Shown one piece after another: positions 37,488-47,595 of a DNA stretch of 64,000 nucleotides. Source of the DNA: Geobacter sp. AOG1 (GTDB lineage Bacteria > Desulfobacterota > Desulfuromonadia > Geobacterales > Geobacteraceae); NCBI RefSeq assembly GCF_019972315.1, contig NZ_BLIZ01000001.1, forward strand, positions 3,474,472-3,538,471. The letters run 5' to 3'. Each line of letters starts with the position of its first letter. The first letter of the stretch is position 1. Under the pieces are notes generated by a model, which saw only the letters and a program-made list of their open reading frames with translations, did not search any database and was not told where the DNA came from. Both the position numbers and the translations under genes were made by a program.

Positions 37488-37551
37488 CACCAACGGGGCT
37501 GCGGCGCAGCGGCGTAGCGTAGCGAAGACCGTCTGCCGCCGCGTGTTAGGA
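37488..37551 (-). repeat. attC-like site D-prime (CACCAAC ... GTTAGGA)
   Basis: Near-identical body to site D; boxes complementary to D and to TCCTAAC at 38366. Confidence 0.75.
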
Positions 37552-40142: not shown

Positions 40143-40829
40143 TTACTTTTGAGCTTGAGATTGAGAAACTTTATCAGCCGTTTTCTGTATAACTTGTTGT
40201 GCTACTTTTTTAAAAACTCGATTCATAAGCTTTTCAATATTTGTTGAGTGCATTACCCCCATTCCTTCCCCTTCGCGGTCTGTTTCATTGATGACCGTAT
40301 CAATAAGTACATCTGAGCTTTTGCCATCAAACAGATTTAAGTTAAGAGTTGCGTTTCTCCGACTGGTAACAGTCAAAAACCCTGTTTCATTGACAAACTC
40401 GAACGACAGTAATTGCCCACCTATTATGTAATCACTAGTCTGCTCTTTGTTTAATTCTTTGATGCTTTGTGCATTGGACTTTGAGAGCACCTTGTCCAGC
40501 GCCTTTGCCTTAAAGCCAGCTTTTGTCAATTCTTGAACCAGAAGTTCTTGGAGTAAGTCTTTGACTGGTATGTAATCAGTTTCTTTGTACGTCATGCCAA
40601 ATTTCCAAGGGCCTTGTAATGCAACAAAACTTTCGCTTTTAACATTACCCTCCTCGACCCACGCCCTTTTATCCTCAAACTTAGCAACACCTAAAGAATA
40701 TTTTTCTAATTCTGTTGCGTTTGATAGACGTGCAGCATCAGCTTGATAAGCGACATCAAATGACCGCGTACACCCGCTTGAGAACGCAACTACAATTAAA
40801 CCAATCACAACCAACCATTTCATTTTCAT
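40143..40829 (-). CDS. hypothetical lipoprotein (228 aa; lipobox FSSGC)
   Basis: MKMKWLVVIGLIVVAFSSGC...; start at ATG 40829 after AAGGAG; AT-rich. Confidence 0.6.
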   Translation of the reverse strand: MKMKWLVVIGLIVVAFSSGCTRSFDVAYQADAARLSNATELEKYSLGVAKFEDKRAWVEEGNVKSESFVALQGPWKFGMTYKETDYIPVKDLLQELLVQELTKAGFKAKALDKVLSKSNAQSIKELNKEQTSDYIIGGQLLSFEFVNETGFLTVTSRRNATLNLNLFDGKSSDVLIDTVINETDREGEGMGVMHSTNIEKLMNRVFKKVAQQVIQKTADKVSQSQAQK

Positions 40830-40904
40830 CGTCTTGTCTCCTTTTTGTTTGATACTCCAAGAGATACTGTTGACCACCTAAACGGAGCTTTTGCCTTGGC
40901 GCGC

Positions 40905-40990
40905 AACACGTTATTGAGCGGTTCACGCACACGCGCGTGAACCGCTGATCTACCCAAATGGAACATTTCTCCCGTGAAACGCTTCTTTCC
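40905..40990 (-). repeat. F-type element (second copy of the E-type palindromic element)
   Basis: GCGCAAC box, CGGTTCACGCACACGCGCGTGAACCG palindrome, then ACCCAAATGGAACATTTCTCC; aligns with 38366-38440. Confidence 0.55.
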
Positions 40991-41027
40991 ACCCCGGTTT
41001 CAAGTGCGGGCGTACCTTCACGCAAAA

Positions 41028-41175
41028 AACCGCCCAGCCGGCATATTGCCAGCATGGGCGGTCTCGATGGGGTACAGGGGCCTGCTCATGGCGCGCTCCC
41101 AGACAGTGCAGTATTCAGAAGAATGAGACTTTTGTAACCCTCCGCGCATCGGCTGTCAAGGAGAAACTGTCACCG
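41028..41175 (-). repeat. Copy 1 of a ~150-nt repeat: promoter-like boxes, RBS, 23-codon micro-ORF (41028-41099), intrinsic terminator (41034-41072)
   Basis: ~88% identical to 47445-47595; minus strand has TTGACA-17nt-TACAAA, GGGAG-6nt-ATG, MSRPLYPIETAHAGNMPAGRFFA, then ACCGCCCATGCTGGCAATATGCCGGCTGGGCGGT hairpin plus TTTTTT. Confidence 0.6.
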
Positions 41176-41388: not shown

Positions 41389-42336
41389 ATGATGCACGGG
41401 TTGAGAATCATTCTGACAGCGGTAGTGACCGCCACTTGCCTGGCGGCATGCGGTGGTGGCGGGAGCGGGAGCAGCGGAGGGAGTACCTCAAGCGGCAGCT
41501 ACAGCGGAGCGACCAATCAGGCTACACTGAGCACCGCCAACGCCAGAGCGGTATCAGTGGATGCATACAACGGGGCACAAGCCAGCGCTACCCTGGGGTC
41601 GGTCGGCGTGGTTACGGCCGGCAACGGGGGTGCGACCACCGACGCTCCGCTGGTACAGGTGGTTGCGGATACCCTGGCCGCCTCGGTACAGCGGCTCGAT
41701 CCCAAAGGTGCGACCGGTCCGGCTGCTACGGGGGCATCCGTGCAGGTCAGCATTCCCGGCACTTACGGAGGCACCCTCAGCTACGTGCTCAATGTCAACG
41801 AGACGAACGGTTCCTTCAGCGGCACCTTCACCTACACGAATTTCCAGGAGGTCCAGAACGGCCCCTTCATCTCCGGCGTGGTGACGTTTTCCGGGGTGTA
41901 TGACCAGACGAGCGGGAAGTTCTCCTCGTTCAGCCTGAGTTTCACGGACTTCGCCGCCACCGAATCGGGCAAAACCTTCACCATGTCCGGCACGATAAGC
42001 TGGAGCCTGAGTAGCACCGGTACCAGGGCCGTGACCGCCAACCTGTTCCTGCGCAACAACACCACCGGCGCCATCAGCTGGGTGAAGGACTATACCTTCA
42101 CTCTCACCGCCCAGTGGGCGCTCACCATCACCGGCAGGTACTACGATCCGGTCTACGGCTACGTGGACATTTCGACCCCGGTCCCGCTCCAGGTATCGTC
42201 TCTCTCCGGGCAGCCGACCTCCGGCGTGCTCCTGTTCACCGGCGCCAGCGGCACCAGTGCGAGAATAACGTTCAACGCCACCGGCTACACGGTGGAGGTC
42301 GATACGGGCACCGGGACCTTCGTTACCGCCCCGTAA
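41389..42336 (+). CDS. hypothetical lipoprotein (315 aa; lipobox LAAC, Gly/Ser-rich linker)
   Basis: MMHGLRIILTAVVTATCLAACGGGGSGSSGG...; Thr/Ser/Gly-rich beta-rich body; GC-rich. Confidence 0.65.
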   Translation: MMHGLRIILTAVVTATCLAACGGGGSGSSGGSTSSGSYSGATNQATLSTANARAVSVDAYNGAQASATLGSVGVVTAGNGGATTDAPLVQVVADTLAASVQRLDPKGATGPAATGASVQVSIPGTYGGTLSYVLNVNETNGSFSGTFTYTNFQEVQNGPFISGVVTFSGVYDQTSGKFSSFSLSFTDFAATESGKTFTMSGTISWSLSSTGTRAVTANLFLRNNTTGAISWVKDYTFTLTAQWALTITGRYYDPVYGYVDISTPVPLQVSSLSGQPTSGVLLFTGASGTSARITFNATGYTVEVDTGTGTFVTAP

Positions 42337-42359
42337 CGCTCACGCGACAACCAGTCCCA

Positions 42360-42390
42360 CAAAAAAAGCCTGCATATGCAGGCTTTTTTT
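42360..42390. terminator. bidirectional intrinsic terminator
   Basis: AAAAAAAGCCTGCATATGCAGGCTTTTTTTG between convergent genes. Confidence 0.8.
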
Positions 42391-42439
42391 GTGGCGTTTC
42401 CGAGGCGACAGGACGGGTCCGATTGCCTGGTGGCATATT

Positions 42440-43378
42440 TCATATAACCAGATGCCCTTTTTTTTCTGCCACCGAGATCATGGCAAGTGTTCCCGAATTG
42501 AACTCAAGGAAATCATTTTCTATCCCGTCACTAAAGATCACTCCATGCTCAGGCATGTGAGAGATGAGCTTGAGGGGTTTCTTTGGGGTGATTTTGCCAA
42601 AGGTGGTCTCGGCAGATGATGTCTTGCTTGGCCACGGCTCACGAACCGAGAAATACAAATAGTTTGCATCCCATTCAAAATTATCCTGCAGTTTCCCTGG
42701 CAGTTTTTTGCCGGAAAGGCGGGACGCAATGCCTGTAGCACCAGCAAGTATGCTCCTGAACCAACCGGTCGACCCGAGCCCGGTTGAAACAATGATTCCA
42801 CTGGAAGAATGCGTCTCCAAACGGTCGTCGATCTGTAGTTCATAGTGGGCAGACGTATGCGATTTCGGCCCTATGAACAGATCGTTCACGCCGTAAAGCG
42901 TCTGGCCGTTGTTGAGTTCAGCCTTTGCCATTGTTACTTCGCGGACCGGTCGGCTTTCAGAGAACACGGCAGGAATAATCCCCGGCAAGTCAGACACCGT
43001 AAATGGCAGGAGGACTCCCTCCCATCGATCCGGATCGGGATTTACTCCCACAACAGACTGGCCATTCAGGTATTTGATGACGTTGGCAACCAGCCCATCC
43101 TGGCCAAGAACGACGACAGTGTCGGTGTGACCAAAGATGAAATTTGTAATAAACTCCCTGTCAACAGTTTGCAGGCGACCTATGTGCGAAAGAAGTCGCT
43201 GGGCATCTTGGACGGAGGCTTTGTATTTCTCGTGCTCACGCTTGTAATCGGAGAAATCAGCCCCGAGATGCTCGACGTAAAATCGTGCCTGTGCCTCCGT
43301 ATTGAAACGCGCAATGAGTTCGTCCAACCGGGTTTTTCTGACGATCAGTACAATCTTGTTTTCGCTGGTACGATCCAT
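42440..43378 (-). CDS. divergent NAD kinase-like (ATP-NAD kinase/DAGK_cat fold) protein
   Basis: 312 aa; N-domain VVVLGQDGLVANV...VVGVNPDP (cf. GGDGT...GINxG) and C-domain ...LQIDDRLETHSSSGIIVSTGLGSTGWFRSI (cf. [21 protein letters not shown]); start overlaps SPFH stop by 1 nt (TAATG). Confidence 0.65.
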   Translation of the reverse strand: MDRTSENKIVLIVRKTRLDELIARFNTEAQARFYVEHLGADFSDYKREHEKYKASVQDAQRLLSHIGRLQTVDREFITNFIFGHTDTVVVLGQDGLVANVIKYLNGQSVVGVNPDPDRWEGVLLPFTVSDLPGIIPAVFSESRPVREVTMAKAELNNGQTLYGVNDLFIGPKSHTSAHYELQIDDRLETHSSSGIIVSTGLGSTGWFRSILAGATGIASRLSGKKLPGKLQDNFEWDANYLYFSVREPWPSKTSSAETTFGKITPKKPLKLISHMPEHGVIFSDGIENDFLEFNSGTLAMISVAEKKGHLVI

Positions 43379-44400
43379 TACTTGGGTGTTCCCTTTGACA
43401 TGAGCTCGCGCAACAGCTCCGGCGAAATATTTAACTGGCCGATTTTATCTGCATTCTCGGCCAGCTCTTTAAAAGCGCTCGCCACAAGCTGGCCGGGATT
43501 CATTCCGACACTCGCCAATGCCTGCAGCGTCTTGGGATCGGTCTTCGCTAGCGCCCCCATGACAGCTGAAATGCCATATGCCTTTGCATCTGCCTCCTGC
43601 TTTGTGTTCTCGGAAGCAAGGGTGACAAATTCGCGGTTTTTCTCTTCGAGCGCGATCTTCGCCGACATTTCTGCCTCGCTTAATTCGCGCATTTTTTTCT
43701 GAACTGACTTTTCAGCATCCATCTGCGTTTCTCTGATCTGCCGTTTTTTGTTTTCAACGGCAATTTCCGTGTTCAACTCATTTTCCTTTATCGCCCGTTC
43801 CTGCTCCACCGCCGCATTTCTCCGTGTATAGACTGCATCGTCCGCTTCACGAAGTATCTGCTCTCGTATCTCCGCCTCAAGGGCGCGTGAAGTCTCGGGT
43901 GTCGGTTTGATGGCTAAAATCGACAAGCCCAGAATCTCTATCCCCAGGGAGGTCGTTTCCTCCGATTGCCGCATCCCCTCCCGCAACGCATTTACAAGGC
44001 CGTCAGAGCTCCCGAGTGCCTGGCGCAGGGACATTTTTTTCAAGGAAGATCGTGTTAATACCTGGGCATGGTTGATGAGCCGTTGCGAAAGTTTTTGCGG
44101 ATCATCCGACGTATAATCTTTCCCGTTTGGTGCTAACGAGAAATTCATCAATTGCGATAGTTTTTTCGGGTCGGTTATGCTGTAGGTGAGCTGTCCTTGT
44201 ACCGTTACCTCCTGAAAATCTGACGTGACCTCTTTGAAAATAAAAGGGACATCAGTGCTTGCGACCGGTATGCGTACTATCGAAGAAGCTGGCGCAAAAT
44301 AAAAAAAGGCCAGGCCAACACCTTCCCTCACCAATTGCCCATTTCGGTAAAGCAGCACATAATCGGTTGGCTGGACTTTAATGAACTTGATCCCTAACAT
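43378..44400 (-). CDS. SPFH/band-7 (stomatin/HflC-like) protein
   Basis: 340 aa; band-7 core then long coiled-coil tail (…KENELNTEIAVENKKRQIRETQMDAEKSVQKKMRELSEAEMSAKIA…). Confidence 0.8.
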   Translation of the reverse strand: MLGIKFIKVQPTDYVLLYRNGQLVREGVGLAFFYFAPASSIVRIPVASTDVPFIFKEVTSDFQEVTVQGQLTYSITDPKKLSQLMNFSLAPNGKDYTSDDPQKLSQRLINHAQVLTRSSLKKMSLRQALGSSDGLVNALREGMRQSEETTSLGIEILGLSILAIKPTPETSRALEAEIREQILREADDAVYTRRNAAVEQERAIKENELNTEIAVENKKRQIRETQMDAEKSVQKKMRELSEAEMSAKIALEEKNREFVTLASENTKQEADAKAYGISAVMGALAKTDPKTLQALASVGMNPGQLVASAFKELAENADKIGQLNISPELLRELMSKGTPK

Positions 44401-44493
44401 GTGGTCTCCTCGCTTTATGTCAGATTACATTCCATGTAAGCGAACCCCTGGCCCCTCACTCGTGTGCCAGGAGGTGCATGGTTGAACACTCCC

Positions 44494-45501
44494 CTATGCG
44501 ATGTGCAATACCGATTTTTTGGGTTTCCCGTTGATGCGCTCTATCCTGCGCCAGCTACTGTTGTCATTCATCGTAATCCAGCGCCTCTCTTCTCCCCGAT
44601 AGAACCAATCCTTGTCTTCCTGATAATATATCTGATGATCCGAAGCCTCCCAGATATTCAGTATCTCGTTACCATGTGCCCGTATTTCGTCAAAGTCCGT
44701 CGTGGCTTTTTGCCCCATTTCACTGTACAGCTCGTTGAGTTCGAGCAGGAGCGTATTGACGTGGGGAGTCATGCGGACAACGTTTAAGCCGATCCGCTGT
44801 GCTTCATCGAAAAGAATGGGATAATTATGCGAGGGGTAATTCGAATTGAGGGTATTGGCTATACGGTCCGCGGTCTCCCCATCGGCGATGTGATAGTTCA
44901 GCAGCTCCTTGCACAGCATTATGGATAGGGATTCCGCGCGATTTACCGCTCCGACAACCAGTGGATGGACATACTGGAACAGTACCTTATAGGGGTTTTC
45001 CTTTATGTCGGATTGCTCCGCCTTCCACAGGCTGATGAGACGGGTTAGTTCATCAAGGCTGACACTTACCCGATCGTTGTCACGATCTACGGGTGAAAGA
45101 TCGTGGGTGAGAGAGGTATCAACCGCGGTCAGATATGCCATCGGACCCATCTGGATCTCGTCAGCGCCCAATGCCAGCATGGTTGCCGCTGAGGCGCATT
45201 GCAGGGGGACAAGAACAACCAATCTGTCGCAATATTGTCGCATCAGATTGACCAAGCGAAGGGCGGCCTGCCCATTTCCCCCGCTTGACTTGATGTACAG
45301 ATAGACGGTTTCGTGCTTGTTGAGCCTTTCCAGGATCGCATAGAGAGCTATCACGTCATTGTTACAGACTTCGCCCTTGCGGTTATTCCAATACGTAATG
45401 AACTTCCCGCCTAGGATCGTACTTATTTTGGTAATTATGGCCTGCGTTTTATTGAACAAAACGGGCGGTTGCTTCACTTTTTGTGGTTCTTGGTTTTCCA
45501 T
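44494..45501 (-). CDS. SDH-family ClpP-fold serine protease (S49/NfeD-STOPP-like)
   Basis: 336 aa from ATG 45501 (AAGGAA RBS); ...YIKSSGGNGQAALRLVNLMRQYCDRLVVLVPLQCASAATMLALGADEI... ClpP/crotonase-fold nucleophile region; track ORF start 45564 falls inside an upstream hairpin. Confidence 0.7.
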   Translation of the reverse strand: MENQEPQKVKQPPVLFNKTQAIITKISTILGGKFITYWNNRKGEVCNNDVIALYAILERLNKHETVYLYIKSSGGNGQAALRLVNLMRQYCDRLVVLVPLQCASAATMLALGADEIQMGPMAYLTAVDTSLTHDLSPVDRDNDRVSVSLDELTRLISLWKAEQSDIKENPYKVLFQYVHPLVVGAVNRAESLSIMLCKELLNYHIADGETADRIANTLNSNYPSHNYPILFDEAQRIGLNVVRMTPHVNTLLLELNELYSEMGQKATTDFDEIRAHGNEILNIWEASDHQIYYQEDKDWFYRGEERRWITMNDNSSWRRIERINGKPKKSVLHIA

Positions 45502-45545
45502 TCGGGGTTCCTTTGCGGAGGTTCGACTCGTTATTGTCATGAAGG

Positions 45546-45592
45546 GGGCAGACCCGCACTTCAAATTTTACATGTGCAGGTCTGCCCTTTCC
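45546..45592 (-). terminator. hairpin between NHL-lipoprotein gene and protease gene (candidate terminator/attenuator)
   Basis: GGGCAGACC(T)GCAC ... GTGCGGGTCTGCCC 14-bp stem; weak T tract. Confidence 0.4.
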
Positions 45593-45606
45593 TCAGGATA
45601 ATCCAA

Positions 45607-47322
45607 TCATTGCATCTTTCGTATGCGACCGTTATCGCCATCGGCTATGAAGAGGCTCTTGCCATCCGTGGTGATGCACCGGGGATGGTTGAATCTCACC
45701 GCGGTTCCGGTCCCGTCGGCATACCCCATCGTTTGACCCGGGAGGGTACCGGCGGGAGCGCCTGCCAGGGTGGTGACGGCTTTCGTGGAGAGGAGCATCC
45801 TGCGAACGTTGCCGGCGGCCTGGTCCGCGATATAGAGGTATGCGCCATCGGTAATGATCCCCATGGGTTCCTGGAAACGTGCCGCCGTGCCGATACCGTC
45901 CGTCCCCCCCGTGGCCAAGGGAGCGCCTGCCAGGGTGGTGACCTCTCCGGTGGCGATCACCACTTTTCTGATAGTGCAATTGTACGTGTCCGCCACGTAG
46001 AGATACGTGCCGTCCGTGGTGATCCCCTCAAGCCCGTTGAACCTCACTGCAGCGCCGATTCCGTCAGCAGAACCGACGGTACCCGCCGTACCGGCCAGAG
46101 TGGTGACTTCACCGGTGGCGATCACAATCTTCCTGATTGAGGAATAGCCGAAATCCGCCACATAGAGGTTCGTGCCGTCCGTGGTGATTCCCTGGGGTTT
46201 TCCGAAGCGCGCCGCCGTGCCGATCCCGTCAATCGGCGTGGGGGGGGGATAGTCCGTGGTCTGGCCTGCCAGGGTGGTGACTTCTCCGGTGGCAATGACT
46301 ATCTTCCGGACATTGAGGTTCTTTGAGTCGGTCATATAGAGGTTGGTGCCATCCGTGGTGATGCCTGCAGGTCTTCCGAACTGGGCCGCCGGTCCCGTCC
46401 CGTCCGCATAGCCATTAAGATTGAAAGTACCCGCCAGGGTGGTGACGACGCCGGTGGCGATTACCGTTTTGCGGACCGTGCCGTTGATCTCCGTTACGTA
46501 GAGGTTGGCGCCATCCGTGGTGATGCCGAATACTTGTCCGAAAGACGCCGCCGTTCCCGTCCCGTCGATTGACCCCCACGTGCTGCCTGCAAGGGTGCTG
46601 ACGGTGACGGGTGCCTTGCTGAGCGGGATTCCCTGAACTGCGCCACCCATGAGCCTGGGTGTCACCGGTGTCACACTGCCGGATGCCGCTGAGACGACGC
46701 TCGTTCCAATGGCATTTGTCGCCGTCACGGTAAAGGTATAGGCGGTGCCGTTGGTCAGGCCTGTCACGGTTATCGGACTTGTCGTACCTGTTGCCGTGAT
46801 GCCGCCGGGGATCGAGGTCACGGTGTAACCGGTTATCGTGCTGCCGCCGCTGGGCGGAGCCACAAAGCTCACTACCGCCAGGCGATCTCCAAATGTGGCG
46901 GTAACCCCGGTCGGCGCCCCGGGTGCCGTCGCCACCGGCGTCACGCTGTTGGATGCCGCCGATGGGGCACTGGTTCCCGCGACATTCGTTGCCGTCACGG
47001 TAAAGGTGTAGGGAGTGCCGTTGGTCAGGCCTGTCACGGTTATCGGACTTGCCGCGCCTGTTGCGCTCAGGCCGCCGGGGTTAGAGGTTACGGTGTATGC
47101 TAAAATTGGCATGCCGCCATCAGAGGCAGGTGCCGTAAAATTCACGGTTGCCTGTGTATTTCCCTCTATGGCACTGCCGATGGTCGGCGCCCCGGGAGAG
47201 GTTCCCATACCAGTACTGGAAGAGCTGGAGGGAGAGTAAAAGTACGATCCGTTGGAACTGCCACTTCCACAACCGGTTACCGTCATCACACACAAAACCA
47301 GCATTACATAGAGCAATTTCAT
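45607..47322 (-). CDS. lipoprotein with two fibronectin-III-like domains and NHL beta-propeller repeats
   Basis: 571 aa; lipobox VTGCGSG; duplicated ...ITVTGLTNGT(P/A)YTFTVTATN... then six NLY(V/M)(T/A)D...IRK(I/V)VIATG repeats. Confidence 0.8.
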   Translation of the reverse strand: MKLLYVMLVLCVMTVTGCGSGSSNGSYFYSPSSSSSTGMGTSPGAPTIGSAIEGNTQATVNFTAPASDGGMPILAYTVTSNPGGLSATGAASPITVTGLTNGTPYTFTVTATNVAGTSAPSAASNSVTPVATAPGAPTGVTATFGDRLAVVSFVAPPSGGSTITGYTVTSIPGGITATGTTSPITVTGLTNGTAYTFTVTATNAIGTSVVSAASGSVTPVTPRLMGGAVQGIPLSKAPVTVSTLAGSTWGSIDGTGTAASFGQVFGITTDGANLYVTEINGTVRKTVIATGVVTTLAGTFNLNGYADGTGPAAQFGRPAGITTDGTNLYMTDSKNLNVRKIVIATGEVTTLAGQTTDYPPPTPIDGIGTAARFGKPQGITTDGTNLYVADFGYSSIRKIVIATGEVTTLAGTAGTVGSADGIGAAVRFNGLEGITTDGTYLYVADTYNCTIRKVVIATGEVTTLAGAPLATGGTDGIGTAARFQEPMGIITDGAYLYIADQAAGNVRRMLLSTKAVTTLAGAPAGTLPGQTMGYADGTGTAVRFNHPRCITTDGKSLFIADGDNGRIRKMQ

Positions 47323-47444: not shown

Positions 47445-47595
47445 TCATAACGCAAAAAACCGCCCAGCCGGCATATTGCCGGCATGGGCGGTTTGGATGG
47501 GGTACAGGGGCCTGCTCATGGCGCGCTCCCAGGCGGTGCGTTATTCAAAAGGGTGAAATGTTTGTAACCCTCCGCGCATCGGCTGTCAAGGAGAA
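47445..47595 (-). repeat. Copy 2 of the ~150-nt repeat: promoter-like boxes (47561-47589), RBS, 24-codon micro-ORF (47445-47519), terminator (47451-47492)
   Basis: Minus strand TTGACA-17-TACAAA, GGGAGCGCGCC-ATG, MSRPLYPIQTAHAGNMPAGRFFAL, hairpin ACCGCCCATGCCGGCAATATGCCGGCTGGGCGGT plus TTTTTT; 123 nt upstream of the NHL lipoprotein start. Confidence 0.6.

Follow-up and report, generated by a model that had tools for sequence, protein, structure and literature searches.

An SPFH gene and a NAD-kinase-fold gene of Geobacter sp. AOG1 form a two-gene module that probably corresponds to nrtX-nrtY

Genes and boundaries of the locus

The window analysed here is a 64-kb stretch of the Geobacter sp. 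AOG1 genome, and its minus strand carries three co-directional open reading frames at the positions given by an earlier note on this DNA. The note had assigned their products to the ClpP-fold SDH-type proteases, the SPFH/Band_7 proteins and the NAD-kinase fold, and the open reading frames, the Pfam matches and the folds bore this out. The region contains the following features:

42357..42394, no strand assigned: bidirectional intrinsic terminator, common to the kinase gene and the convergent plus-strand gene at 41389..42336
42440..43378, minus strand: nrtY-like gene; its product is a 312-aa NAD-kinase-fold protein of the NADK2-like type, with the motifs GQDG, NPDP, ND, SSG and STGLGSTGW
43378..44400, minus strand: nrtX-like gene; its product is a 340-aa SPFH/Band_7 protein without a membrane anchor, laid out as SPFH domain, 118-residue helix and C-terminal helical region
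44401..44493, minus strand: protease/SPFH spacer of 93 nt, with the ribosome-binding site GAGGAG
44494..45501, minus strand: protease gene; its product is a 335-aa ClpP-fold SDH-type serine protease, a neighbour outside the conserved module

The protease gene starts with ATG, and an alternative TTG at 45564 is also open. No terminator-like hairpin was found in the spacer behind it (fold z-score -0.5; no site in the terminator scan), and read-through from the protease gene into the SPFH-kinase pair is possible. The stop codon of the SPFH gene and the start codon of the kinase gene overlap in the sequence TAATG at 43376-43380, the coupling that the earlier note had described. The low GC content that it had pointed out is also present, since each of the three genes has a GC of 0.50, whereas the window as a whole has 0.58 and the flanking genes have 0.61-0.63 (about 0.60 in the note), and their GC3 is 0.55-0.61 against 0.69-0.80.

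The strong bidirectional terminator is a perfect 19+19 nt palindrome, CCACAAAAAAAGCCTGCAT/ATGCAGGCTTTTTTTGTGG, flanked by an A7 run and, on the opposite side, a T7 run. The DNA common to related genomes does not include it, stopping at the stop codon of the kinase gene. A 146-nt repeated element, placed on one side only by the earlier note, flanks the region on both sides (41020-41165 and 47450-47595). No attC-like repeats flank the protease gene or the SPFH-kinase pair, palindrome-containing repeats being confined to 36-41 kb, and an origin of the protease gene and the pair as integron cassettes was rejected on this ground. An Rfam scan of 34-50 kb gave no match at the gathering threshold.

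Conservation of the pair and its link to NrtR

Among 80 genome loci of the kinase family, which represent about 15 phyla, 79 could be evaluated for gene order, and in 78 of these the SPFH gene immediately precedes the kinase gene on the same strand. The pair occurs in Desulfobacterota, Planctomycetota, Verrucomicrobiota, Acidobacteriota, Chloroflexota, Bacillota, Cyanobacteria, Nitrospirota, Bacteroidota, Gamma- and Betaproteobacteria and others, as well as on Rhizobium, Ralstonia, Acinetobacter and Kitasatospora replicons, and in Kitasatospora it is kept even at 33% identity. It is spread patchily, in a manner suggestive of HGT, and identity across phyla is 60-70%. Near-abutting or overlapping junctions are the general rule: of 77 loci, 66 have distances of -4 to +16 nt and 29 have an overlap, and the coupling of the two genes is thus far more general than the one locus could tell. 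One locus (L067) has the kinase gene and no recognisable SPFH gene, and at another (L029) a 1.2-kb gap separates the two genes.

DNA similarity with related Geobacteraceae covers exactly the SPFH and kinase genes. It starts at about 44425-44434, 25-35 nt upstream of the SPFH start and inside the 93-nt spacer, which is therefore the edge of the conserved module. The functional unit is very probably these two genes, window positions 42440-44400, together with their ribosome-binding site.

The protease gene stands apart from the pair. Its product matched the Pfam models SDH_protease (3e-11; 43.3 bits, cut-off 31.3) and CLP_protease (1e-6); in the same scan NfeD1b_N stayed below threshold (20 bits, cut-off 40), and neither an NfeD OB domain nor any further domain was found. 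The protein has no membrane segment, its hydropathy peak coinciding with a buried strand at the catalytic Ser. The residue aligned with the ClpP nucleophile is Ser104, in LxCASAATM; in 22 sequences Ser104 and His133 are invariant and Asp187 is kept in at least 90%. The best phage family for the protease is phrog_11747 (8e-30). Elsewhere it is a solo gene in variable contexts, and its closest relatives (81% and 79% identity) have unrelated gene contexts. The protease family was found in 0 of the 80 kinase/SPFH loci, and the SPFH or kinase gene of the pair in 0 of 85 protease-family loci. In 7 of those 85, a different 383-aa Band_7 gene adjoins the protease gene on the same strand, in two arrangements; these seven loci represent about four related lineages.

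The earlier note had seen a core of protease and SPFH gene of the NfeD/STOPP type, with the kinase gene as a possible passenger. Our results show the reverse: the kinase gene is co-conserved with the SPFH gene but not with the protease gene, a conserved triad was not found in either set of loci, and the protease is the outsider. An NfeD/STOPP identity was rejected because the domains do not fit, membrane segments are lacking and the genes are not co-conserved. The triad of Geobacter sp. AOG1 is most probably a product of chance, its members lying side by side inside a horizontally acquired patch.

In other genomes the pair is linked to a regulator. Genes of the NrtR type (Nudix plus NrtR_WHD, E 1e-18 to 1e-24) adjoin it in 18 of the 80 genome loci, in several phyla, and also in plasmid loci. 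Often the adjacent gene points away from the pair, and palindromic boxes (AGTTG..CAACT and GTGTC..GACAC) lie in the spacer between them. ADP-ribosylglycohydrolase genes are near the pair in five loci. At a Proteus mirabilis locus (L179), an nrtR-like gene (2e-68) diverges from the SPFH (6e-84) and kinase (5e-104) genes. An 'nrtR<>nrtX-nrtY' divergon, with a two-gene operon of unknown function, was listed by Rodionov et al. (2008, NAR 36:2047, PMC2330246), whose Table 1 names Proteus mirabilis, Streptomyces, Kineococcus, Frankia and Hahella as hosts and whose main text gives neither a domain description nor locus tags (PMC2330246). Relatives are carried by Streptomycetaceae replicons, as the pair in Kitasatospora and as a kinase match only in Streptomyces. 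As deduced from species and layout, not from locus tags, the pair matches nrtX-nrtY. Since the P. mirabilis layout is as published, the combination, which the earlier note took to be undescribed, is not entirely so; a function was never assigned to it there. Literature searches on SPFH with NAD kinase, on NrtR with stomatin or NAD kinase, and on follow-ups to nrtX/nrtY gave nothing beyond the 2008 table. No NrtR-like open reading frame is present anywhere in the 64-kb window, and inspection of the 93-nt spacer by eye showed no AGTTG..CAACT or GTGTC..GACAC box; the regulatory logic discussed below is therefore borrowed from other genomes.

Fold and motifs of the two products

The SPFH protein matched Band_7 in Pfam (5e-17; 62.9 bits, cut-off 23.6) and has no transmembrane segment (hydropathy maximum 1.48 in a 19-residue window). 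It opens directly with the SPFH strands, its N-terminus is disordered in the predicted structure, and the SPFH domain is followed there by a 118-residue helix at 168-285. A PDB sequence search with this protein gave nothing at E 0.01 or better, and relatives emerged by fold search: Foldseek returned HflK/C, erlin, stomatin, QmcA, prohibitin, flotillin and MVP cage subunits (E 1e-8 to 3e-10), every one a subunit of a ring or cage assembly. Among these matches, those with solved assemblies form closed rings or cages from subunits in which an SPFH domain precedes a very long helix and a C-terminal cap. The protein is probably soluble or peripheral, and we infer that it may form a ring or cage by analogy with the architecture of other SPFH proteins, all of which are membrane-attached. 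To our knowledge, the roles and clients of bacterial SPFH proteins are largely unknown beyond HflK/C-FtsH and the NfeD pairs.

The kinase-like protein has the two-domain NAD kinase fold. A PDB search with the family profile matched NADK2 only, and NADK2 (PDB 7n29, 7r4j) was the best match in both structure and sequence, at 18-22% identity. Pfam NAD-kinase models were not reached (NAD_kinase_C 13.7 bits against a cut-off of 23.7; no match for the N-domain), nor was an NCBIfam cut-off (best match 30 bits against 219), and the NCBI annotation reads 'sugar kinase'. A lipid, DAG or sphingosine kinase identity was rejected, these being farther in structure than the NAD kinases.

Conservation of motifs was assessed over 87 diverged representatives and motif counts were made on 88 sequences. 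The earlier note had read GQDG and NPDP as substitutions in the phosphate-binding motif. Both are present, at residues 92-95 and 113-116, and are invariant among close relatives, but NPDP, within GVNPDPDRWEG, aligns with GVNTDPERSEG of human NADK2 and on this alignment is an NADK2-type motif rather than a degenerate one. In the alignments Asp94 falls opposite D161, the catalytic Asp within GGDG of NADK2 (PMC9245612). Family-wide, the phosphate loop keeps this Asp and the last Gly, and the second Gly is replaced by Q, P or R (GQDG in 43 sequences, GPDG in 25, GRDG in 7); GGDG itself is not among the eight commonest variants. The altered loop could change the phosphoryl donor or the substrate, or abolish activity. 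The NE/D motif is ND at residues 165-166 (ND or NE in 85 of 88), SSG is kept in 86 of 88, and S/A-T-G-x-G-S/A-T-G-W is conserved. The NADK2/C5orf33 subfamily has Ser, Lys and Trp where Ppnk has Asp189, Thr200 and Tyr202, with Ser306 and Trp319 of C5orf33 forming the Ser...Trp signature (PMC3535332). The kinase-like protein matches the Ser and the Trp, and its middle residue is Thr in place of Lys317 of NADK2. The aligned Asp, the ND motif and the Ser...Trp signature are all kept among the 87 diverged representatives.

Proposed role, alternatives and known systems

Gene order, coupling, distribution, folds, motif conservation and the NrtR neighbourhood were computed here, and together they suggest the following reading. 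The module would pair a soluble or peripheral nrtX-like SPFH protein with a translationally coupled nrtY-like kinase, and the SPFH assembly would scaffold, sequester or gate the kinase in a complex, perhaps a cage. The proposed reaction is phosphorylation of NAD(H), or of an adenine dinucleotide very close to it, at the 2'-OH, with NADP(H) as the product, and the module would be an accessory, horizontally spread supplement to the housekeeping NAD kinase. It is probably under the control of an adjacent NrtR in many other genomes. Because ADP-ribose releases this repressor, the module would be on in genomes with nrtR when NAD is consumed. In Geobacter sp. AOG1 the pair would have come without nrtR, into a low-GC patch beside an unrelated solo ClpP-fold protease gene, from which it may be read through. 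We give this reading as a whole, a mobile two-gene module for an SPFH-scaffolded auxiliary NAD(H) kinase, a rough probability of 0.55, which is a blended figure. Its biochemical part, NAD(H) kinase activity under SPFH control, is drawn from sequence and predicted fold and is put forward tentatively, at slightly under even odds.

The kinase-like protein may instead make no NADP, acting on another substrate (ADP-ribose, NaAD, a lipid or a sugar) or serving as a non-catalytic, ligand-binding subunit of the SPFH assembly. The change from GGDG to G[QPR]DG throughout the family, the NAD kinase sequence models that were not reached, the 'sugar kinase' name and the ADP-ribose-related neighbours (NrtR, ADP-ribosylglycohydrolase) are consistent with this; we hold it to be unlikely. 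The three genes could also cooperate in Geobacter sp. AOG1, as a local innovation within one operon in which the protease processes or regulates the SPFH protein, much as the STOPP/NfeD protease PH1510 cleaves its stomatin partner. They share strand and GC, the spacer is short and terminator-free, the nucleophile Ser104 is kept, and the other Band_7 gene beside some protease genes hints at a family affinity for SPFH proteins. However, those Band_7 loci reduce to a few related lineages, the closest protease relatives sit in unrelated contexts, protease and pair are absent from each other's loci, and homology among Geobacteraceae ends just upstream of the SPFH start. The NfeD OB domain is also missing, as are membrane segments in both the protease and the SPFH protein, and such cooperation appears improbable.

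If the pair were a defence or abortive-infection module, the kind of role suggested in the earlier note, it would act on the NAD pool, for instance by depleting NAD+ through conversion to NADP+ once an SPFH sensor is triggered. PADLOC-DB 2.0 gave no match for the protease or the kinase, and its sole match for the SPFH protein was a weak, chance-level one to ZorC in the coiled-coil region (E 0.0036). No relatives were found in 50,697 phage records (tblastn) or in IMG/VR contigs (pattern scan). The annotated neighbourhoods that were read contain metabolic or regulatory genes and, by Pfam or record annotation, no defence genes; they are not defence islands, and NrtR control indicates homeostasis, not infection sensing. 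The patchy, HGT-like spread at high identity across phyla, the position within a low-GC patch, a BrnT toxin gene adjoining one locus and the links to NAD and ADP-ribose genes, NAD being a common battleground in phage defence, do not lift this idea above the very improbable.

The reading of an SPFH-scaffolded auxiliary NAD(H) kinase can be carried further, to a free or peripheral SPFH nanocage that encloses or gates an NADK2-like kinase. Compartmentalisation would then control NADP(H) synthesis, NrtR would switch it on once ADP-ribose signals NAD consumption, and the kinase family would stand as the bacterial sister group of mitochondrial NADK2, or as its source. This extension is a long shot, but if true it would be a new type of SPFH-client system, in which the client is a defined, soluble enzyme. 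An anchor-less SPFH protein tied to one soluble enzyme in about 15 phyla makes a tractable case for studying how SPFH proteins control their clients. The kinase family is relevant to where NADK2 came from. It also raises the question whether NADP(H), or a phosphorylated dinucleotide related to it, is made in bacteria by a second route that is regulated and tied to ADP-ribose sensing. A function for the pair would fill a gap standing since 2008, the role of nrtX-nrtY in the NrtR regulon.

Among known systems, the pair resembles the SPFH-NfeD/STOPP modules (P. horikoshii PH1511-PH1510, E. coli QmcA-YbbJ) in joining an SPFH gene to a dedicated partner in a tight operon and in an SPFH fold that matches QmcA and stomatin, with a ClpP-fold serine protease adjoining by chance. 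Unlike in those modules, the conserved partner is a kinase and not NfeD, the protease has neither the NfeD OB domain nor membrane segments and is not co-conserved with the pair, and the SPFH protein lacks an N-terminal membrane anchor. With HflK/C-FtsH, erlin, prohibitin, flotillin and vault it shares the SPFH domain, the very long helix and the C-terminal cap region, but it is anchor-less, its putative client is a soluble metabolic kinase, and it is known here from sequence and predicted fold. With NADK2/C5orf33 the kinase-like protein has in common the helical region after strand 1, GVNxDPxRxEG, the Ser...Trp signature of the NAD site, the ND/NE motif and the catalytic Asp; it differs in its low identity (18-22%), in GQDG for GGDG, in Thr for Lys317, and in being bacterial and obligately paired with an SPFH gene. 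The counterpart in layout is nrtX-nrtY (PMC2330246): the Geobacter sp. AOG1 window is without nrtR and without a recognisable operator, but the same divergent arrangement of nrtR and the two genes was found at the P. mirabilis locus.

Gene content of the locus

The features considered here are the following.

44494..45501, minus strand: gene for an SDH-type ClpP-fold protease, 335 aa from the ATG chosen in the earlier note
43378..44400, minus strand: SPFH gene, 340 aa
42440..43378, minus strand: NAD-kinase-like gene, 312 aa
42357-42394: terminator serving both the kinase gene and its convergent neighbour 41389..42336; perfect palindrome of 19+19 nt, arms A7 and T7
41020-41165 and 47450-47595, read on the minus strand: 146-nt direct repeat, 91% identity
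36644-36702 and 37492-37550: palindrome-containing repeat family, 95% identity
38370-38437 and 40905-40972: another palindrome-containing repeat family, 78% identity

Our results agree with the earlier note on the layout of the locus: the three co-directional ORFs lie where it placed them and carry the expected domains, the SPFH stop overlaps the kinase start in a TAATG, and the strong bidirectional terminator that it described is the perfect palindrome listed here. Its estimate of about 50% GC against about 60% in the neighbours was also borne out, with 0.50 in the three genes, 0.58 in the window and 0.61-0.63 in the flanking genes (GC3 of 0.55-0.61 versus 0.69-0.80). Database entries from Geobacter sp. 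AOG1, the source of the window, are 100% identical to the protease and to the SPFH protein. In Pfam, the protease matches SDH_protease (3e-11) and CLP_protease (1e-6) and the SPFH protein matches Band_7 (5e-17); the kinase has only a sub-threshold match to NAD_kinase_C (E 0.054), and its matches to NCBIfam NAD-kinase models reach 2e-7, yet fall far under the model cut-offs. Between the stop of the NHL/fn3 gene and the protease start, a 14-bp inverted repeat (GGGCAGACCTGCAC..GTGCGGGTCTGCCC, 45510-45600) has no T-run.

The 146-nt repeat shows a promoter-like start (TTGACA-17 nt-TACAAA), about 100 nt, a GC-rich hairpin and T6 on the minus strand, and each copy lies 130-150 nt 5' of a minus-strand lipoprotein gene (40143..40877, and the NHL/fn3 gene 45607..47322). 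No Rfam family matched this repeat, which could be a leader, an attenuator or a small RNA. The two palindrome-containing families are spaced along the low-GC region between 36 and 41 kb (GC 0.47), where they look like cassette boundaries.

The conserved unit and its boundary

Relatives of the kinase gene were gathered from 80 genome loci (59-92% identical) in roughly 15 phyla, running from Geobacteraceae to Planctomycetota, Verrucomicrobiota, Acidobacteriota, Chloroflexota, Bacillota, Cyanobacteria and Nitrospirota. In 78 of 79 evaluable loci the kinase gene is preceded, in the same orientation, by a gene for a homologue of the SPFH protein; the distance from SPFH stop to kinase start is -4 to +16 nt in 66/77 and the reading frames overlap in 29/77. 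The pair is also carried by Rhizobium, Ralstonia and Acinetobacter replicons, and a Kitasatospora replicon retains it at 33% identity with a 4-nt overlap. DNA similarity with related Geobacteraceae begins at the kinase stop codon (42440-42447) and ends 0-35 nt 5' of the SPFH start (44400-44434), and none was found in those loci past these two ends. The SPFH-kinase pair is widespread and strongly conserved. In one close relative (L001-L003 and L007, kinase 89% identical), only the last 140 SPFH codons are left beside an intact kinase gene, and DNA homology to the window begins only at 43795.

The protease does not share this distribution. It was absent from all 80 kinase loci and, conversely, neither the SPFH nor the kinase gene of the window was present at any of 85 protease loci, 59 of which extend 1.2 kb or more downstream; the closest protease relatives (81% and 79% identity) adjoin unrelated genes, as do further ones. 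Since the kinase-centred and protease-centred surveys agree, we conclude that the unit consists of two genes, SPFH and kinase, with a probability of roughly 0.9. Of the triad described in the earlier note, only the SPFH-kinase adjacency is conserved, and the three-gene combination is a chance juxtaposition. A three-gene operon that functions locally would suit the 93-nt protease-SPFH spacer, in which no terminator was found, so that read-through of the pair from the protease gene is possible; set beside both surveys, such an operon is very unlikely.

The protease is an independent solo gene, and probably a mobile one. Seven of the 85 protease loci, in about four lineages and two arrangements, have a different, 383-aa Band_7 gene adjoining it, and the family may be loosely drawn to SPFH proteins. 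Its members are 70-80% identical across very different metagenomes (loci L086-L090 and L099-L182) and occur as solo genes in unrelated settings, such as beside an NTase/HEPN pair; among phage families, phrog_11747, which has no assigned function, matches best (8e-30).

NrtR neighbourhood and mobility

What most often adjoins the pair is a gene for a protein of 220-240 aa with Nudix and NrtR winged-helix domains (E 1e-18 to 1e-24), present at 18 of the 80 genome loci (Proteobacteria, Bacillota, Nitrospirota, Chloroflexota, Planctomycetota and Omnitrophota) and at Rhizobium, Ralstonia, Acinetobacter and Proteus loci; the 64-kb window has no NrtR gene. Where this gene diverges from the pair, palindromes occur in the spacer between them, for example AGTTG-N5-9-CAACT, with GTGTC..GACAC at the Proteus locus, and ADP-ribosylglycohydrolase genes occur at five loci of the pair. 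NrtR was described as a regulator family governing NAD synthesis genes by Rodionov et al. 2008 (PMC2330246), whose Table 1 lists 'nrtR<#>nrtX-nrtY' in Proteus mirabilis, Streptomyces, Kineococcus, Frankia and Hahella, nrtX and nrtY being termed 'of unknown function'. Because the P. mirabilis layout, nrtR-like <> SPFH - kinase, matches this divergon exactly, we conclude that the SPFH gene corresponds to nrtX and the kinase gene to nrtY; the module is already catalogued in that table, without description or function. Our searches found no later literature on nrtX/nrtY and no papers joining SPFH proteins with NAD kinases.

At five Bacillota loci (L048, L061, L067-L069) an 820-aa protein is encoded directly 5' of the SPFH gene, with a C-terminal class I methyltransferase domain and 560 N-terminal residues without a Pfam match; NrtR-like genes lie farther upstream in L048, L068 and L069, and L067 has no recognisable SPFH gene.

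In P. mirabilis the divergon also lies some 0.7 kb 5' of tet(J), and in pAST2 (uncultured bacterium) and Acinetobacter lwoffii pALWED1.1 it directly touches tetR(H)-tet(H). Among the plasmid matches, whole or truncated kinase genes accompany tetR(H)-tet(H) on Acinetobacter plasmids and pAST2, and truncated copies occur on small Actinobacillus and Psychrobacter plasmids; the kinase fragment therefore marks where these tet genes were captured.

The earlier note's option of a stress or abortive-infection module finds no support on the defence side. PADLOC gave nothing for the three proteins beyond a weak, chance-level ZorC match of the SPFH protein, PHROG had no match for the pair, no relatives of it were found in 50,697 phage genomes or IMG/VR, and its annotated surroundings are metabolic or regulatory, varying by genome. 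That the pair is a defence system is hardly to be credited.

Kinase fold, SPFH model and possible function

The similarity to NAD kinases reported earlier was confirmed as a fold. The AlphaFold prediction, for which 30 relatives were used, is a confident one (pLDDT 84.7). Its Foldseek search returned mitochondrial NAD kinase 2 (NADK2, C5orf33) at E 8e-19 and followed the order of the structural ranking, and NADK2 was the sole match of the family profile among PDB sequences (2e-9). By structure, the kinase thus belongs to the NAD-kinase superfamily and comes nearest to NADK2. GVNPDPDRWEG lines up with GVNTDPERSEG of NADK2, and SSGIIVSTGLGSTGW with SSGLNLCTGTGSKAW; the NPDP region, previously read as degenerate, is therefore an NADK2-type feature, and the altered GGDG stands as a real substitution. 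Asp94 aligns with the Asp of that motif, D161 of NADK2, whose D161N mutant is nearly dead (PMC9245612). The invariant Arg14 aligns with an NADK2 Lys that we take to be the diphosphate contact K76, on the assumption that residue numbers are shifted as in the construct that was crystallised.

With an E limit of 1e-30, about 300 clusters at 50% identity match the kinase. In 87 such clusters, each represented by a full-length sequence, the NADK2-matching positions are kept. GGDG is the exception: its second Gly is replaced by Q (43 sequences), P (25) or R (7), and this replacement is thus a family hallmark. A kinase-like protein that acts on a substrate other than NAD, or that serves as a subunit without catalysis, would be in keeping with this altered motif and with the missed curated thresholds; we consider it unlikely.

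The SPFH protein lacks a transmembrane segment, its hydropathy peaking at 1.48. Its model, of moderate confidence (mean pLDDT 72.7, pTM 0.45), shows an SPFH domain, a single unbroken helix (168-285) and short C-terminal helices. No PDB sequence matched, and Foldseek returned HflK/C, erlin, stomatin, QmcA, prohibitin, flotillin and major vault protein, the solved structures of which are large ring or cage assemblies.

ADP-ribose is the effector that frees NrtR. We propose that the module is a mobile accessory unit in which an SPFH assembly, possibly a cage, would form a complex with the NADK2-like kinase and scaffold or gate it. The kinase would phosphorylate NAD(H), or else a dinucleotide that resembles it very closely, and in many other genomes the module would be expressed under NrtR control, on an ADP-ribose signal of NAD turnover. 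NAD(H) kinase activity under SPFH control is a tentative reading, to which we give slightly less than even odds.

C5orf33/NADK2 has Ser306, Lys317 and Trp319 in place of the Asp, Thr and Tyr of canonical kinases and retains GGDG and an NE/D motif (Ohashi et al., PMC3535332); the present family has Ser, Thr, Trp and ND. The NfeD/STOPP class was considered for the pair and rejected, since its three defining features (OB domain or membrane segments in the protease, protease and SPFH genes as conserved neighbours, SPFH membrane anchor) were sought and not found. The pair would act like other SPFH-partner operons, SPFH-NfeD and HflK/C-FtsH.
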